From an uncultured Actinomycetota bacterium (GTDB lineage Bacteria; Actinomycetota; Actinomycetes; Prado026), in contig CAWKHA010000004.1 in the NCBI GenBank assembly GCA_963849365.1, positions 1,430,227-1,494,226 on the forward strand: a stretch of 64,000 nucleotides of DNA, written 5' to 3'. The notes under the pieces were generated by a model that did no database searches, was not told the DNA's origin, and saw only the letters and a list, made by a program, of their open reading frames with translations. Position 1 is the first letter of the stretch, and each line of letters starts with the position of its first letter. Position numbers and translations under genes: made by a program. This document shows, piece by piece, positions 16,841-27,485 of the stretch.

Positions 16841-17329
16841 TCAGCGGTAGTTGGTGAACTGGAGCGCGTACTCCAGGTCCTTGTCCTTGAGCAGCGCGAT
16901 GACCGCCTGCAGGTCGTCGCGACTCTTCGAGGAGACCCGCAGCTCGTCGCCCTGGACCTGGACCTTCGCGTTCTTCGGCCCCTCGTCCCGGATGATCTTG
17001 CCGATCTTCTTGGTCGCCTCCTGGGACAGCCCCTGCTTGAGATCCGCGGCGATGCGGTACTCCTTGCCCGACACCTGGGGCTCGCCCGCGTCCAGCGCCT
17101 TCAGCGAGACACCGCGCTTGACCAGCTTGTCCTTGAAGACGTCCAGCACCGCCTTGACCCGGTCCTCCGACGAGGCGCTCATCTGCACCCGCTCGCCCGA
17201 CCAGGCGATCGACGCGCCGACGTTCTTGAAGTCGTAGCGCTGCGCGATCTCCTTGGCGGCCTGGTTCAGTGCGTTGTCGACCTCCTGACGGTCCACCTTG
17301 GAGACGATGTCGAAGCTGGAGTCGGCCAT
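16841..17329 (-). CDS. yajQ: YajQ family (UPF0234) nucleotide-binding protein
   Basis: Minus-strand ORF. The real start is ATG (complement of 17327-17329), giving [36 protein letters not shown]... The longer ORF-track extension runs across the tRNA genes and is an artefact. Confidence 0.8.
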
Positions 17330-17385
17330 GGTTCCCTCGTTTGGGACGGCTGTACGGGCGTGCGCTATTGTTCCACCCGCTCCGC

Positions 17386-17587: not shown

Positions 17588-17660
17588 GCCCCTTTAGCTC
17601 AGTCGGCAGAGCGTCTCCATGGTAAGGAGAAGGTCTACGGTTCGATTCCGTAAAGGGGCT
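17588..17660 (+). tRNA. tRNA-Thr (anticodon GGT)
   Basis: Acceptor gcccctt/aaggggc, D-arm agctcagtcggcagagc, anticodon loop cuccauGGUaagg, T-loop ggttcgattcc. Confidence 0.85.
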
Positions 17661-17666
17661 CCCACG

Positions 17667-18446
17667 ATGTCGTCCGCGCCATCCGCGTCCCCCGCGTCGC
17701 CCGCCCGCCCAGCGGTGCGGATCGCGATGTGGTCGGGCCCGCGGAACATCTCCACCGCGATGATGCGCTCGTTCGGCAACCGGCCGGACACCGCCGTGGT
17801 CGACGAGCCGCTGTACGCCGCCTACCTGCGCGAGACCGGCCTGGACCACCCCGCTCGCGACGAGATCCTGGCCGCGCAGGACGACGACTGGCGCCGGGTG
17901 ACCGCCGCCCTGGTCGGGCCGGTGCCCGGCGGCCGCCGCGTGTTCTACCAGAAGCACATGACCCACCACCTGCTCCCCGGAACCGGGCGCGACTGGCTCG
18001 GTCAGGTGACCAACGCCTTCCTGGTCCGCGACCCCGCCGGCGTCGTCGCGTCGTACGCGCGGGTGCGCGGCGAGCCCACGCTGGAGGACCTGGGGTTCCC
18101 GCAGCAGGTGGAGATCTTCCGGATCTGCGCCGACGCGTCGGGGACGGCCCCACCGGTCGTGGACGCGGCCGACGTGCTGGCCGCGCCGGGACCGGTCCTG
18201 GCCGAGCTGTGCAGCCGCGTCGGCATCGACTTCGACGACCGGATGCTGTCCTGGCCGGCCGGCCGGCGGCCGACCGACGGGGTCTGGGCGCCGTACTGGT
18301 ACGCAGCCGTGGAGGCCTCGACCGGCTTCGGCCCGCCGAGCCGGCGACCCGCCGAGGTCCCCGACCACCTGCTCGGGCTGCTGGAGAGCTGCCGGCCCTA
18401 CTACGACGAGCTGTGGCAGCACCGCATCGAGCCGCCGCCGTCCTAG
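17667..18446 (+). CDS. Conserved hypothetical protein, sulfotransferase-like P-loop fold (tentative)
   Basis: ATG 17667 lies immediately after tRNA-Thr. Carries a ...RIAMWSGPRNISTAMMRSF... PAPS-binding-like P-loop. Homology is inferred from memory only. Confidence 0.4.
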   Translation: MSSAPSASPASPARPAVRIAMWSGPRNISTAMMRSFGNRPDTAVVDEPLYAAYLRETGLDHPARDEILAAQDDDWRRVTAALVGPVPGGRRVFYQKHMTHHLLPGTGRDWLGQVTNAFLVRDPAGVVASYARVRGEPTLEDLGFPQQVEIFRICADASGTAPPVVDAADVLAAPGPVLAELCSRVGIDFDDRMLSWPAGRRPTDGVWAPYWYAAVEASTGFGPPSRRPAEVPDHLLGLLESCRPYYDELWQHRIEPPPS

Positions 18447-19630: not shown

Positions 19631-19798
19631 GTGGCTGCCAAGACCGACGTCCGTCCCAAGATCACCTTGGCGTGCCAGGACTGCAAGCACCGCAACTACA
19701 TCACCAAGAAGAACCGGCGCAACGACCCGGACCGCATCGAGCTGAAGAAGCACTGCCCGTTCTGCAACAAGCACACGGTGCACCGCGAGACCCGCTGA
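19631..19798 (+). CDS. rpmG: 50S ribosomal protein L33
   Basis: Not in the ORF track (55 aa). [55 protein letters not shown] with a C4 zinc ribbon. AGGAG Shine-Dalgarno 7 nt upstream of GTG. Confidence 0.85.
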
Positions 19799-19916
19799 CC
19801 CCGGCGCGGCCAGGCCGCGCCCCCGAGGCCGTCCCCGATGATCGGGGGCGGCCTTCGTGCGTTAGCGTCGCCCCGCGGTACGGGTGCAGGCGAGCGGGCG
19901 AGGAGAGGGGACGGGG

Positions 19917-20729
19917 ATGCGACGGCTCGAGGACAGGGTGGCCATCGTCACCGGCGCCGGCCGGGGCATCGGCCGGGCGACCGCGCTGCGGCTGGCGGCC
20001 GACGGCGCGGTCGTGGTGGTCAACGACGTCGACGCCGAGCCGGCGCACGAGACGGCCGAGCTGATCGGTGCCGCCGGTGGCCAGGCCTCGGTCGGGATCT
20101 TCGACACCGTCGACCTGGCCGCCGCCCGCGAGCTCGTCGGCTCCACGGTGCAACGGCACGGCAAGGTCGACATCCTGGTCAACAATGCCGGCATCACCCG
20201 GGACAAGATGTTCCACAACCTCGACGACGACCAGTTCACGCTCGCCTTCGACGTGAACTTCAAGACCGGCTTCCACACCACGCTGGCGGCGATGCCGTAC
20301 ATGCGTGAGGTGGCCAAGGCCGAGATCGCCGCCGAGGGGCAGCCCCGCTACCACCGCAAGATCACGTTCACCTCGTCCGTGGTGGCGTTCACCGGTAACC
20401 CGGGGCAGTACAACTACACGGCCGCTAAGGGCGCCATCATCTCCACGACCAAGACCCTGGCCCGCGAGCTCGGCCCGTTCCGGATCAACGTGAACGCGGT
20501 CGCGCCCGGGTTCGTGGAGACGCGGATGACCGCCGCCAAGCAGCCCGGCGCCGATGTGGGCATCCCCGAGGAGATGCGGCAGATGTCGCTCGCGCTGATC
20601 GCGCTCGGGCGCTTCGGGCAGCCAGAGGACATCGCCAACGTGCACGCGTTCCTGGTCTCGCCCGACGCCGACTTCGTCTCCGGCGTCACCGTCCCGGTGA
20701 CCGGCGGGCAGCTGGGAGGGATGGGCTGA
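19917..20729 (+). CDS. SDR family oxidoreductase (FabG-like 3-oxoacyl reductase)
   Basis: Rossmann TGAGRGIGRA and catalytic YNYTAAK motifs. Internal ATG 19917 chosen, preceded by GAGGAGAGGGGA. Confidence 0.8.
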   Translation: MRRLEDRVAIVTGAGRGIGRATALRLAADGAVVVVNDVDAEPAHETAELIGAAGGQASVGIFDTVDLAAARELVGSTVQRHGKVDILVNNAGITRDKMFHNLDDDQFTLAFDVNFKTGFHTTLAAMPYMREVAKAEIAAEGQPRYHRKITFTSSVVAFTGNPGQYNYTAAKGAIISTTKTLARELGPFRINVNAVAPGFVETRMTAAKQPGADVGIPEEMRQMSLALIALGRFGQPEDIANVHAFLVSPDADFVSGVTVPVTGGQLGGMG

Positions 20730-21187
20730 TGCCGCTCGACCCGGCCTTCGTTGGGCGCACGTACCCGCCGACCACGCCGTACCTCGTCAGCCGCGAGAAG
20801 ATCGGCGAGTTCGCCAACGCGGTCGGCGACGCCAACCCGGCGTACCACTCGGTCGAGGCGGCCAGGGCGCTCGGGCACCCCGACGTCGTCGCCCCGCCCA
20901 CGTTCGCCGTGGTGCTCACCTCGCGCGCCTCGGCCCAGGTGATGTTCGACCCCGAGCTCGGGCTGGACTACTCCAAGGTCGTGCACGGAGAGCAGTCGTT
21001 CGCGTACGAGCGTCCCGTGGTCGCGGGGGACCGGCTCGTCGTGGTCGCCGCCGTGGAGAACATCCGGTCGGCGGCCGGCAACGACCTGCTGACGCTGCGC
21101 GCCGAGGTCTCCACCGTCGAGGGCGAGCTGGTGTGCACCGCCCGGTCGACCGTCGTCGCGCGCGGTACCGCCGCGCCGGAGGGCTGA
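20729..21187 (+). CDS. MaoC-like/hotdog (3R)-hydroxyacyl dehydratase subunit, HadA-like
   Basis: 152 aa hotdog fold lacking the catalytic His-containing half. ATGA overlap with the SDR gene. Same position as hadA in the Mycobacterium rpmG-hadABC-secE locus. Confidence 0.7.
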   Translation: MPLDPAFVGRTYPPTTPYLVSREKIGEFANAVGDANPAYHSVEAARALGHPDVVAPPTFAVVLTSRASAQVMFDPELGLDYSKVVHGEQSFAYERPVVAGDRLVVVAAVENIRSAAGNDLLTLRAEVSTVEGELVCTARSTVVARGTAAPEG

Positions 21188-21190
21188 GCC

Positions 21191-21619
21191 GTGCCGGCGA
21201 CCGTGCGCTACGACGACGTCGAGGTGGGCACCGAGCTCCCGGCCCGCTCCTTCCCGCTGACCCGCCTGCGCCTGGTGATGTACGCCGGCGCCTCCGGGGA
21301 CTTCAACGTCATCCACTGGAACGAGCGGGTGGCCCGCTCGGTGGGCCTGCCGGACGTGATCGCGCACGGGATGCTGACCATGGCCGAGGCGGTCCGCGTG
21401 GTCACCGACTGGGCCGGCGACCCGGGCGCCGTCGTCGAGTACGGCGTGCGGTTCACCCGGCCGGTGGTGGTGCCGGACGACGACGCCGGTGCGTCGCTCG
21501 AGGTGACCGGCACGGTCGGCGCCAAGCTGGACGGGGGCCTGGTCCGGGTCGACCTCGTGGCCCGTTCCGGCGAGGACAAGGTCCTCGGGCAGGCCCGCGC
21601 GGTGGTCCGGCTGGTGTGA
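21191..21619 (+). CDS. MaoC-like dehydratase catalytic subunit, HadB-like
   Basis: 142 aa with hydratase-2 motif DFNVIHWNERVARSVGLPDVIAHG. Confidence 0.75.
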   Translation: MPATVRYDDVEVGTELPARSFPLTRLRLVMYAGASGDFNVIHWNERVARSVGLPDVIAHGMLTMAEAVRVVTDWAGDPGAVVEYGVRFTRPVVVPDDDAGASLEVTGTVGAKLDGGLVRVDLVARSGEDKVLGQARAVVRLV

Positions 21620-22599
21620 GCGAGCGGGCCGGGCCGGCCGGGGCGGCACAAGCACCGCCCGCGTCCGTCGCCGACCTGGCCCGGGAGCGGGCGGCCGCAC
21701 GGGCCAGGCGGGACTTCGTTGCCGCAGACGCCCTGCGCACGCGGATCGAGGCCGCCGGCTGGCGGGTCGCCGACACCCCGGCGGGCACGGACGGGTTCGT
21801 GCTGACCCCGGCCCCGCCGTTCGAGGTGCTCGCCGGCCTGGACGACCTGCGGCCGACCGCTGCGCAGGGAGCCGGCGAGCGCCGCGCGACGGTCGGGCTG
21901 CTGGTCGAGGGCTGGCCCGACGACGTCCGCCGTTGCCTCGGCGCCCTGCTGCGGCACCTGCCGCCCGACGTGTCCGTGTCGGCCCTGGACCTCGGGGACG
22001 TGGACGGTGCCGGGCTGGTGCTGCACGAGCTGACGCTCGCCCACCCAGGCCGGGTCGCGGCGTGGCACGTGGCGACCGGCCCGCTGCAGACCGGCTGGGG
22101 GCCGGCGCGCACCGCCCTGCTGCGGCTCGACCCGGCCCCGGTGCACGTCGTGATGGACGTGTCCACCGTTCTCGACGGCGACGCGGTCACGCCGCTGCTG
22201 GCGGCGCTCCTCGGCGACCCCTCGGCGGTGGCGGCGGGGTGGCAGGGCGTGCTCGTGGACACCGACGACGCCTGGCGCTCGGTCCACCCGGCGGCGCCCG
22301 GCGAGGTCGACGCGCTGCTCGGCTACCTCTTCGCAGTCCGCACCGCCGTGGCCCTGGCCGCCCCGCCGCACCCGCGCGCGGCTTTCTACCGCAACGCCGA
22401 CCTGGAGTGGTCGCTGGCCCTGCGCGCCCACGGCGGGCGGCTCGTCGTGCCCGACGTCGTCCTGCCCTGCCACAGCGAGCGCCACCGTGGCTACCACGAC
22501 ACCGACCCGGCCGTGCGCGACCGCGAGTCCCGGCGGACGTACGAGCGGATGCTGCGTCGCTTCCGCGGCAGACCGGGACTGCTGGCACCTCGGCCCTAG
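21616..22599 (+). CDS. Hypothetical two-domain protein: CysRS-C-terminal-like N-domain fused to a GT-A (glycosyltransferase family 2)-like C-domain
   Basis: GTG 21616 overlaps the hadB-like stop (GTGA). N-terminus ERAAARARRDFVAADALRTRIEAAGWRVADTPAGTDGF resembles the conserved C-terminal tail of cysteinyl-tRNA synthetase/MshC. C-terminal part ...FYRNADLEWSLALRAHGGRLVVPD resembles the GT2 C-terminal region. Both from memory. Confidence 0.4.
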   Translation: MSERAGPAGAAQAPPASVADLARERAAARARRDFVAADALRTRIEAAGWRVADTPAGTDGFVLTPAPPFEVLAGLDDLRPTAAQGAGERRATVGLLVEGWPDDVRRCLGALLRHLPPDVSVSALDLGDVDGAGLVLHELTLAHPGRVAAWHVATGPLQTGWGPARTALLRLDPAPVHVVMDVSTVLDGDAVTPLLAALLGDPSAVAAGWQGVLVDTDDAWRSVHPAAPGEVDALLGYLFAVRTAVALAAPPHPRAAFYRNADLEWSLALRAHGGRLVVPDVVLPCHSERHRGYHDTDPAVRDRESRRTYERMLRRFRGRPGLLAPRP

Positions 22600-22608
22600 G
22601 CTCGGCGC

Positions 22609-23658
22609 GTGCGGGAGAACAGCGACGTGCGGCTCGCCGAGCTGACGACGCTGCGGCTGGGTGGCCCGGCGCGGACGGTGCTGTGGCCCGACACCGAGTC
22701 CGAGCTGGTCGAGGCCGTGGTCGCCCTCGACCGAGCCGGCACTGCCGTGCTCGTGATGGGCGGCGGCTCGAACCTCGTCGTCAACGACGAAGGCTTCGAC
22801 GGCACCGTCGTGGTCGTCGGGACCCGCGGCATCCGTAAGCGCTTCTCCGGCGACGGTGCGCTCGAGCTGACCGTCGCCGCGGGGGAGCCCTGGGACGAGC
22901 TGGTGGCGGGCACGGTCGAAGGCGGCTTCGGCGAGCTCGCCGCTCTGTCGGGCATCCCGGGCCTGACCGGGGCCACTCCGATCCAGAACGTCGGCGCCTA
23001 CGGACAGGAGGTGTCCGCCGTCATCCGTACCGTGCGCGCCCTCGACCGGCGCACCGGCGCGGTGACCGAGATCGCGGCGGCCGACTGCGGGTTCGGCTAC
23101 CGGGACAGCCGGTTCAAGCGGGATCCCCGGTTCGTCGTCCTGGCGGTCACGGTGCGCCTGACCCCCGGCGACCAGCCCGTCCGGTACGCAGAGCTCGCCC
23201 GCAGCCTCGGCGTCGACGTGGGGGCCGGCGCCCCGCCGGCCGACGTCCGGTCGGCGGTGCTCGCGCTGCGCCGCGCCAAGGGCATGGTCGTCGAGCCCGG
23301 TGGCACGGACCCGGACACCCGCAGCGCCGGCTCGTTCTTCACCAACCCCGTGCTTCCGGTCGACTCGCCGGCCCTGCGCGCGCTGCCGGCGGACGCGCCG
23401 CGCTACCCGGCGCCCGCGGGGCAGGTGAAGGTCTCGGCCGCCTGGCTCATCGAGCAGGCCGGCTTCACCAAGGGGTACGGGCACGGCGACGCGCGCATCT
23501 CGACAAAGCACACGCTCGCGCTCACGAACCGGGGGGCCGCGTCGGCGGCCGGGCTGCTCGCGCTGGCCGCCGAGATCGTCGCCGGGGTCCGGGACCGCTT
23601 CGGCATCACCCTGACCCCCGAGCCGGTCCTGGTCGGCTGCGCCCTCACGCCCGGCTGA
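22609..23658 (+). CDS. murB: UDP-N-acetylenolpyruvoylglucosamine reductase
   Basis: 349 aa, FAD-binding ...LVMGGGSNLVV... and C-terminal MurB domain ...SAGSFFTNPV...AAWLIEQAGF... Confidence 0.85.
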   Translation: MRENSDVRLAELTTLRLGGPARTVLWPDTESELVEAVVALDRAGTAVLVMGGGSNLVVNDEGFDGTVVVVGTRGIRKRFSGDGALELTVAAGEPWDELVAGTVEGGFGELAALSGIPGLTGATPIQNVGAYGQEVSAVIRTVRALDRRTGAVTEIAAADCGFGYRDSRFKRDPRFVVLAVTVRLTPGDQPVRYAELARSLGVDVGAGAPPADVRSAVLALRRAKGMVVEPGGTDPDTRSAGSFFTNPVLPVDSPALRALPADAPRYPAPAGQVKVSAAWLIEQAGFTKGYGHGDARISTKHTLALTNRGAASAAGLLALAAEIVAGVRDRFGITLTPEPVLVGCALTPG

Positions 23659-26669: not shown

Positions 26670-27485
26670 GTGACCGAGCCCACCCGCACCGACGACGTCG
26701 CGCTCTCCGCCGTGCCCGGCGACGAGCCCGCCGACGCTGCAGCGAGCGAGCCGGTCGAGGTCGCCGTCGAGGAGCCCACCGCCGTCGAGGAGCCCACCGC
26801 CGTCGAGGAGCCCACCGCCGTCGAGGAGCCGGCCGAGCCGGTGGCCGGGGAGTCGGCCGCCGAGGAGTCGGCCGCCGAGGAGCCGGCCGCCGAGGAGCCG
26901 GCCGAGGTCGACCCCGTCGAGGCGTTCAAGGACACTCTGCGCGCGGCCCCGGGGGAGTGGTACGTCGTGCACTCCTACGCCGGCTACGAGAACCGCGTGA
27001 AGGCCAACGTGGAGAGCCGGACGACCTCGCTCAACATGGAGGACTTCATCTACCAGGTCGAGGTCCCGCAGGAAGAAGTCGTCGAGATCAAGAACGGCCA
27101 GCGCAAGCTGGTCCGGCGCAACAAGTTCCCCGGCTACGTCCTGGTCCGCATGGACCTCACCGACGAGTCGTGGGGTGCGGTGCGCAACACCCCGGGCGTG
27201 ACGGGGTTCGTCGGGCACGCCCACCAGCCGACCCCCCTCACCGTCGACGAGGTCGTCAACATCCTCGGCCCGACGGTCGAGAAGAAGGCCCACGAGAAGG
27301 CCGAGATCAAGGTCCTGGACTTCCAGGTCGGCGACTCGGTCACGGTCATCGACGGGCCGTTCACCAGCCTCCAGGCGACGATCCACGAGATCAACGCCGA
27401 CACACAGCGGATCAAGGGACTGGTCGAGATCTTCGGCCGCGAGACCCCGGTCGAGCTGTCGTTCTCCCAGATCCAGAAGAACTAG
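26670..27485 (+). CDS. nusG: Transcription termination/antitermination factor NusG, with a repetitive acidic N-terminal extension
   Basis: NGN and KOW domains (..[14 protein letters not shown].., ..[12 protein letters not shown]..). Confidence 0.92.
26763..26834 (+). repeat. In-frame 18-nt tandem repeat (gccgtcgaggagcccacc) x3 plus a degenerate 4th copy inside the nusG 5' coding region (EEPTAV x3)
   Basis: Three identical consecutive 18-mers read directly from the sequence. Confidence 0.9.

Follow-up and report, generated by a model that had tools for sequence, protein, structure and literature searches.

What is a bacterial gene for if it encodes the anticodon-binding piece of a cysteinyl-tRNA synthetase (CysRS), lacks the synthetase itself, and continues into a glycosyltransferase (GT)? 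The question is raised by gene X, which lies in a stretch of 64,000 nucleotides (hereafter the window) from an uncultured Actinomycetota bacterium (assembly GCA_963849365.1, contig CAWKHA010000004.1, positions 1,430,227 to 1,494,226). Both domains of X are of already known kinds, and their halves are labeled separately in databases. What is new here is that the same GT clade is found at the end of complete CysRS enzymes. We tentatively read X as a glycosyltransferase directed to the anticodon of tRNA-Cys, in which the anticodon-binding domain (ABD) would recognize tRNA-Cys and direct or control the transferase. This reading, drawn from sequence comparison, is favored because the ABD always accompanies the GT clade, the residues equivalent to anticodon contacts are invariant, the fusions are to genuine CysRS, and the two domains can be joined by a disordered tether. 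There is a realistic chance that X is categorically new, a bacterial tRNA glycosyltransferase. In the literature searched, no paper on the stand-alone ABD-GT protein or on a CysRS-GT fusion was found, and reviews of synthetase diversity are silent on both; an earlier, sequence-only reading of this DNA had likewise known of no characterized protein with this architecture. To our knowledge, catalytic domains appended to bacterial aminoacyl-tRNA synthetases are rare. The features of gene X are as follows.

21616..22599 (stop included), + strand: gene X, encoding a 327-residue protein with a CysS_C-type ABD and a GT-A domain (984 nucleotides, 327 codons and the stop)
21616..21619, + strand: GTGA, the GTG start of X over the TGA stop of the hadB-like gene
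21658..21813, + strand: domain homologous to the C-terminal ABD of CysRS, residues 15-66, two helices and a beta-hairpin
21814..21879, + strand: variable linker, residues 67-88
21880..22596, + strand: GT-A, GT2-like glycosyltransferase domain, residues 89-327
22156..22164, + strand: D181-V182-S183, the clade-specific D/E-x-S found where GT-A enzymes have DXD
22387..22401, + strand: Y258-R259-N-A-D262, invariant YRxxD motif
22483..22485, + strand: H290, invariant histidine

The two domains of X

Searched by itself against Pfam, the window protein gave no match for either half. The protein is too divergent for Pfam, and the domains were therefore placed via homologues and profiles. In the NCBIfam comparison, residues 16-58 of X match positions 443-485 of the 490-position cysS model (TIGR00435) with E 9.6e-5; the score of 12.4 bits is far below the cut-off of 340, and the match is limited to the first ~60 residues. 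X itself has no class I catalytic domain and fails the full-length CysRS model. Homologues that are 58-67% identical to X carry PF23493 (CysS_C, "cysteinyl-tRNA ligase anticodon binding domain") with 28.9-34.8 bits, the cut-off being 23. For the structure search, we used a family profile built from 45 family members. This profile matches a stretch of ~45 residues at the C-terminus of CysRS proteins of known structure, with the best agreement for the Coxiella enzyme (3tqo, E 4e-8), followed by the C-termini of the E. coli (1li5/1u0b, E 3.5e-7) and Borrelia (3sp1, E 8.5e-5) enzymes. There was no MshC structure among the PDB matches of the profile, and X does not match the MshC model (TIGR03447). 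In the CysRS-GT fusions described below, the match to the MshC model stops at residue ~398-413, before the ABD. The tail domain is a CysRS feature, not an MshC feature. The sequence-only reading had assigned the N-terminus of X to a CysRS/MshC tail; the CysRS part of this assignment is borne out by the cysS model, PF23493 and the PDB profile matches, whereas the MshC part has to be dropped, because the ABD lies beyond the end of the MshC model. An MshC-like partner for X, suggested at the same time, is pure speculation.

In the profile alignment, R25, R29, F34, D38, R41 and D53 of X correspond to R423, R427, W432, D436, R439 and D451 of E. coli CysRS, respectively. The roles of the contact residues were taken from two publications (PMC12684709 and PMC13449415). 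In the E. coli enzyme, R427 and D436 form hydrogen bonds to the anticodon base G34, W432 stacks on this base, and R423 and D436 belong to the water network around it (PMC12684709). Furthermore, four residues of the anticodon domain, R427, W432, D436 and R439, were the ones changed to make CysRS recognize a different anticodon (PMC13449415). We examined conservation of these positions in 173 loci aligned to the family hidden Markov model, comprising 84 stand-alone actinomycete proteins and 89 proteins of the distant type, the latter mostly full CysRS fusions. R25, R29, an aromatic residue at position 34, D38, R41, G48 and D53 are shared by 81-84 of the 84 stand-alone and by 87-88 of the 89 distant-type proteins. 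For the five contact positions alone (R25, R29, position 34, D38 and R41), the stand-alone count is 81-83, conservation is about 98-100% in both groups, and position 34 is always F, W or Y. The equal conservation of the contact residues suggests that the stand-alone ABD is under the same constraint as the ABD in working synthetases. We infer that the ABD of X binds tRNA-Cys. The idea that the CysRS tail targets the protein to tRNA-Cys had already been put forward from the sequence, and it is strengthened by the invariant equivalents of the G34 contacts.

The C-terminal domain of X has a confident GT-A fold, a single Rossmann-like alpha/beta/alpha unit, in agreement with its earlier description as GT2-type. 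The window protein has no Pfam GT2 match at E <= 1; its homologue P0012 (~66% identical) exceeds the cut-offs of PF13641 (38.4 bits, cut-off 27) and PF00535 (33.8 bits, cut-off 23.3), and distant CysRS-GT fusions reach up to 72 bits. The family profile matches GT2 structures weakly. S183 of the D/E-x-S motif is found in all 84 stand-alone proteins and in 81 of the 89 distant-type proteins. Also conserved in both groups are D125, in the nucleotide-binding loop, and S305; the loop itself reads DNGSxD in the CysRS-GT fusions versus LDLG(D/N)VDGAG in the window type. By-eye alignment places D262 at the position of the catalytic-base aspartate of GT2 enzymes (the xED region), so that a catalytic role is plausible for this residue, and H290 is a candidate metal ligand. 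The conservation of D125, D/E181, S183, Y258, R259, D262, H290 and S305 argues for an active site as opposed to a dead domain, and X is predicted to have glycosyltransferase activity.

Between the ABD and the GT domain, the linker has grown to ~100-170 residues in homologues from Streptosporangiaceae (P0124, P0126 and P0131, whose sequences were read), where it is disordered, of low complexity and rich in Gly, Ala, Pro and Arg. The long linker is present in Nonomuraea and Sphaerisporangium, and probably in Acrocarpospora and Streptosporangium, too. With such a linker, the ABD looks like a tethered, independent binding module and not like a part of the GT fold. We considered the possibility that homologues of 416-547 residues are HadB-X fusions and rejected it, because P0124, P0126 and P0131 are linker-expanded proteins with the ABD at the N-terminus; the Pfam scan of two further long homologues, P0127 and P0144, gave no match.

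An obvious concern in a G+C-rich genome is a compositional artefact that affects the open reading frame, its start or the resemblance of the domains. The lack of a Pfam match for the window protein and the long spurious open reading frames on the strand opposite X would fit such an artefact; the latter are a chance product of the G+C-rich genome. The artefact is nevertheless refuted by more than 1000 homologues (the closest non-identical one at E ~1e-138), by an AlphaFold2 model with pLDDT 93.5, by conserved synteny and coupling, and by independent gene calls that agree: gene callers on two independent assemblies produced the identical 327-residue product, followed by murB. The GTG of X occupies 21616-21618 and the TGA of the hadB-like gene 21617-21619, and we interpret this overlap as translational coupling of X to the hadB-like gene. 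Direct reading of the sequence found no further in-frame ATG, GTG or TTG between the GTG at 21616 and P15, the first conserved residue, and GGTGG lies 10 nt 5' of the start. The GTG start, overlapping the hadB-like stop, that the sequence-only reading had chosen thus holds.

Fusions to complete synthetases

An exhaustive search of cluster representatives retrieved proteins of 725-818 residues, in which the C-terminal ~310 residues align to the whole of X with 26-33% identity. For four of these (P0203, P0207, P0222 and P0231), the N-terminal part is a full CysRS (tRNA-synt_1e, E ~1e-90 to 1e-97); CysS_C was detected in three of the four, and the GT2 domain is also present. P0231, P0222 and P0203 pass the TIGR00435 cysS cut-off of 340 bits, with 422, 404 and 369 bits, respectively, and fail the MshC model, with 207-220 bits versus a cut-off of 485. 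One of them, P0231 (HEU5012563.1, 818 residues), was deposited as "cysteine--tRNA ligase [Roseiflexaceae bacterium]". The domain order in the fusions is CysRS body, ABD, then GT. Every complete member of the GT clade that we examined has an ABD, and the fusion of the two domains, first noticed in X, is conserved in the clade.

These architectures are widespread. A metagenome scan with the distant-type alignment gave at least 600 candidate stretches, at least 542 of which encode a relative. In at least 70 metagenomic loci (within L081-L083 and L090-L170; e.g., L081:6001-8457), a KMSKS-type core and the ABD-GT unit are encoded in one uninterrupted frame. Stand-alone ABD-GT proteins are found in Chloroflexota, too (P0170 and P0177). 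In genomes, relatives of X were detected in at least 412 species-level genomes; the best 80 of the 412 include Frankiales/Frankiaceae, Sporichthyaceae, Acidothermaceae, metagenome-assembled genomes labeled "Mycobacteriales", and many Nanopelagicales (acI), the streamlined genomes of which keep X within a housekeeping operon. With at least 540 metagenomic loci and a presence in the abundant freshwater Nanopelagicales, the ABD-GT clade is not a one-genome curiosity.

Several peculiarities of the fusions should be recorded. Where class I enzymes have the HIGH motif, the fused CysRS of P0203, P0207, P0222 and P0231 read HIGN (HLGN in P0203), and KMAKS stands for KMSKS; the three of them compared with the cysS model pass its cut-off all the same. 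P0207, P0231, P0190 and P0200 end in a conserved His-rich C-terminal tail (…HDHPxHxxGxHxH…HTHxHQHWPDHxHEHxHYH; alignment columns ~800-850) that looks like a metal-binding extension; window-type proteins do not have this tail. Genes for a YqeY-like protein, a GFO/IDH/MocA oxidoreductase, MeaB, a CoA-transferase and Lon-N recur near the fusions, in what looks like lineage synteny that gives no pathway clue. The YqeY-like family (GatB-tail-like, PF09424) occurs near the fusion in 22 loci and directly upstream of it in L146 (L146:6053-6532), and may represent lineage synteny or another tRNA-related partner. We also considered an origin of MshC and X by fission of a thiol-synthesis CysRS-GT paralogue, which would seem less likely: the fusions score as CysRS, not MshC, and X is present only in some actinomycete lineages.

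Operon setting and possible functions

In the window, X belongs to a co-directional cluster with the following genes.

19631..19798, + strand: rpmG (ribosomal protein L33), the first gene of the cluster
19884..20729, + strand: FabG-like SDR, the stop of which overlaps the ATG of the hadA-like gene by 1 nt
20729..21187, + strand: hadA-like hot-dog dehydratase subunit (129 bits, equivalog cut-off 180), separated from the hadB-like gene by a 3-nt gap
21191..21619, + strand: hadB-like MaoC dehydratase subunit (145 bits, equivalog cut-off 203), with a 4-nt overlap with X
22609..23658, + strand: murB (UDP-N-acetylenolpyruvoylglucosamine reductase), 9 nt past the stop of X

The hadA-like and hadB-like products contain the MaoC/FAS1_DH Pfam domains and score below the NCBIfam HadA and HadB equivalog cut-offs; "HadAB-like" is therefore the correct term. 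We found no terminator-like site on the + strand across the rpmG-to-murB stretch. There is no cysS gene in the window and, near X, no tRNA-Cys gene or Rfam element. The order hadA-hadB-X is found in almost all of the 80 best actinomycete loci, so that the linkage to hadA and hadB that had been noticed in the single sequence is conserved, and murB directly follows X in about three-quarters of these loci. A 4-nt overlap between the start of X and the stop of hadB is possible in 40 of the 67 related loci with adjacent genes, the other gaps ranging from -8 to +48 nt; the gap between X and murB is mostly 5-54 nt. Further downstream, related loci contain an aminotransferase gene on the opposite strand and then nusG, and secE was also seen. 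A homologue only 32% identical to X is found in the order rpmG-methyltransferase-SDR-hadA-hadB-(glyoxalase)-X, and hadAB-like and SDR genes lie no more than a few kb from a few CysRS-GT fusions (L090, L117 and L118). A metabolic link of glycosyl transfer to the SDR and hydratase genes, which the sequence-only reading had proposed, might be read from this synteny; the operon also contains rpmG and murB. Glyoxalase-family genes adjoin the hadAB-like genes both at a distant stand-alone locus (L173:4974-5345) and at a fusion locus (L090:11346-12265), which could be a coincidence or part of an older conserved neighborhood.

How could the two domains work together? Under the reading that we favor, X would be a cytoplasmic two-module enzyme that combines the ABD of CysRS, without the synthetase body, with a GT-A nucleotide-sugar transferase. 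The ABD would most likely still dock on the GCA anticodon of tRNA-Cys and bring the transferase to this tRNA, which would then be glycosylated at a nucleotide of the anticodon loop or close to it; alternatively, the transferase might depend on bound tRNA-Cys for its activity. Chloroflexota and many uncultured lineages have the transferase at the C-terminus of the complete CysRS, immediately behind the ABD, so that tRNA-Cys charging and GT activity would share one tRNA-bound polypeptide. In Actinomycetes, the synthetase body is absent, and X would be expressed from the rpmG-SDR-hadA-hadB-X-murB operon, with translational coupling to hadB. A tRNA as the glycosyl acceptor, like the identity of the donor, is speculative. 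In the fusions, the GT comes after the ABD and is thereby located near the anticodon of the bound tRNA; if tRNA is the acceptor, the anticodon loop is therefore the most plausible target. The stronger proposal, that tRNA glycosyltransferases exist in bacteria and that X and the CysRS-GT fusions, as the first of them, place a sugar on an anticodon-loop nucleoside of tRNA-Cys, seems unlikely to us. Under this proposal, the actinomycete enzyme would have been split off and built into an rpmG/fatty-acid/peptidoglycan operon. There is a precedent in vertebrates, where queuosine at tRNA position 34 receives sugars from QTGAL and QTMAN (PMC12518689). These eukaryotic enzymes act on Q34 of tRNA-Tyr and tRNA-Asp and have no synthetase-derived targeting domain.

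Several observations weigh against a tRNA-directed glycosyltransferase. We know of no glycosylated nucleoside in bacterial tRNA-Cys. The canonical DXD, a defining feature of GT-A enzymes, is absent across the whole GT clade, so that catalysis is a prediction, and the best structural match of X is a mannosyltransferase of the polyprenyl-phosphate type. The conserved neighbors of X are lipid and wall genes (hadAB, SDR and murB, and FemAB in one Chloroflexota lineage), not tRNA-modification genes. Finally, proteins of the X family are acidic (median isoelectric point 5.1 and net charge ~ -13 in the charge analysis), which is not as expected of a large RNA-binding surface. It should be noted that synthetases can be acidic as well.

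The gene neighborhood points to another function, the main rival, which we consider possible, if somewhat doubtful: X could be a GT of the cell envelope or of lipids, a peripheral GT2 enzyme that uses polyprenyl-phosphate, a hydroxy-fatty-acyl compound or a peptidoglycan precursor as the acceptor and works with the SDR and HadAB-like enzymes of FAS-II and with MurB. In this case, the ABD would be an inherited structural, oligomerization or protein-interaction module that has lost RNA binding. The nearly universal hadA-hadB-X-murB synteny in the best 80 actinomycete loci, in which X is commonly coupled to hadB and separated from murB by a short gap, the persistence of the rpmG-SDR-hadA-hadB-X linkage at 32% identity, and the hadAB-like and SDR genes near the fusions L090, L117 and L118 are all consistent with an envelope role, as is a conserved basic C-terminal helix in a protein that is acidic overall. 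However, X sits in a conserved rpmG...secE-nusG housekeeping region, so that synteny may reflect inheritance and not pathway membership, and the other genes around the fusions are unrelated housekeeping genes. No transmembrane segment is apparent in the secondary structure of the X model. An envelope role leaves unexplained both the five anticodon-contact positions that stay invariant in stand-alone proteins at 26-33% identity and the at least 70 loci in which the clade is joined to a genuine CysRS.

Two less likely explanations also involve tRNA-Cys. X might be a sensor or regulator that binds a nucleotide sugar through its GT-A domain and tRNA-Cys through its ABD, coupling the status of cysteine or tRNA-Cys to the supply of envelope precursors or, in the fusions, modulating CysRS. 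Regulatory add-on domains are frequent on synthetases, and the loss of the canonical DXD across the whole clade, the attachment of the domain to an essential synthetase, and the presence in the operon of murB, the product of which acts on a UDP-sugar, would all fit. Yet D125, D/E181, S183, YRxxD, H290 and S305 are invariant over the 173 loci, a pattern more typical of catalysis than of ligand binding, and we regard a sensor as quite improbable. The chances are slimmer still that X acts on charged Cys-tRNA-Cys, either by glycosylating the cysteinyl moiety or by using Cys-tRNA as a donor for wall precursors, following a Fem-like logic. The ABD would then serve to select tRNA-Cys, murB is adjacent in actinomycetes, and in one Chloroflexota lineage a gene of the FemAB family, the members of which use aminoacyl-tRNA, directly precedes the X homologue. 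This adjacency, however, is seen in a single lineage represented by three near-identical contigs, the geometry of the E. coli CysRS-tRNA complex would place the GT of the fusions at the anticodon end, far from the aminoacylated 3' end, and we know of no aminoacyl-tRNA chemistry in the GT-A fold. The lineage in question encodes the stand-alone ABD-GT protein directly after the FemAB-family gene (L087:4902-5972, also in L088 and L089), and a VKOR gene lies further downstream in the opposite orientation.

If the ABD does deliver the GT to tRNA-Cys, the consequence would be a new bacterial tRNA modification or a tRNA-dependent metabolism, with a synthetase recognition module recycled as a targeting device, and the rpmG-hadAB-murB operon that many Actinomycetes share would gain a function for one of its conserved genes. 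If, instead, the acceptor is a lipid or wall precursor, a missing envelope enzyme would be identified, with a tie to CysRS that stays unexplained.

Known relatives and other features of the window

The ABD of bacterial CysRS (PF23493; ~406-461 in E. coli, 1U0B/1LI5) resembles that of X in profile homology, in the two helices and beta-hairpin, and in the contact residues. Unlike CysRS, X has this domain at the N-terminus and lacks the Rossmann catalytic domain, the DALR/helical bundle and the zinc site. The CysRS-GT2 fusions (e.g., P0231) share with X the GT clade, the signature of D-x-S, YRxxD, H and S, and the order of ABD and GT; unlike X, they keep the whole synthetase, have the DNGSxD loop and, in some cases, the His-rich tail. 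GT2 enzymes of the GT-A fold, namely SpsA (1H7L), PcManGT (6YV7), GlfT2 (4FIX) and K4CP (2Z86), have acidic residues at the nucleotide-binding and catalytic-base positions, as X does. X differs from these four enzymes in having D/E-x-S in place of DXD and a fused tRNA-recognition domain, and is only 10-17% identical to them. Glu-Q-RS (YadB) and MshC are, like X, pieces of class I synthetases reused outside aminoacylation for translation (PMC9437257). They are the mirror image of X: YadB and MshC represent the catalytic body without the ABD, whereas X has the ABD only. In RefSeq and UniRef, homologues of X are labeled "CysS/YqeB C-terminal domain-containing protein", "glycosyltransferase family A protein" or "hypothetical protein"; the labeled strains are cultured ones of Nonomuraea, Sphaerisporangium, Acrocarpospora and Streptosporangium, and the domain labels each name one half of the protein and no function.

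Three further observations concern other genes of the window. An open reading frame at 16841-17330 (- strand) resembles, by eye, a YajQ-type nucleotide-binding protein and adjoins the cluster in several related loci; the Pfam scan of its 163-residue version found no family. The longest version of an open reading frame with a PF19798 sulfotransferase domain (17619-18446, + strand) starts inside the gene for tRNA-Thr(GGT) at 17588-17662. Since the Pfam match begins at residue 34, the true start of this frame is probably downstream of the tRNA. The NusG protein of the window has an acidic N-terminal extension of ~95 residues ahead of the NusG domain (26670-26950, + strand), in which EEPTAV is repeated three times and followed by AAEE-type repeats.

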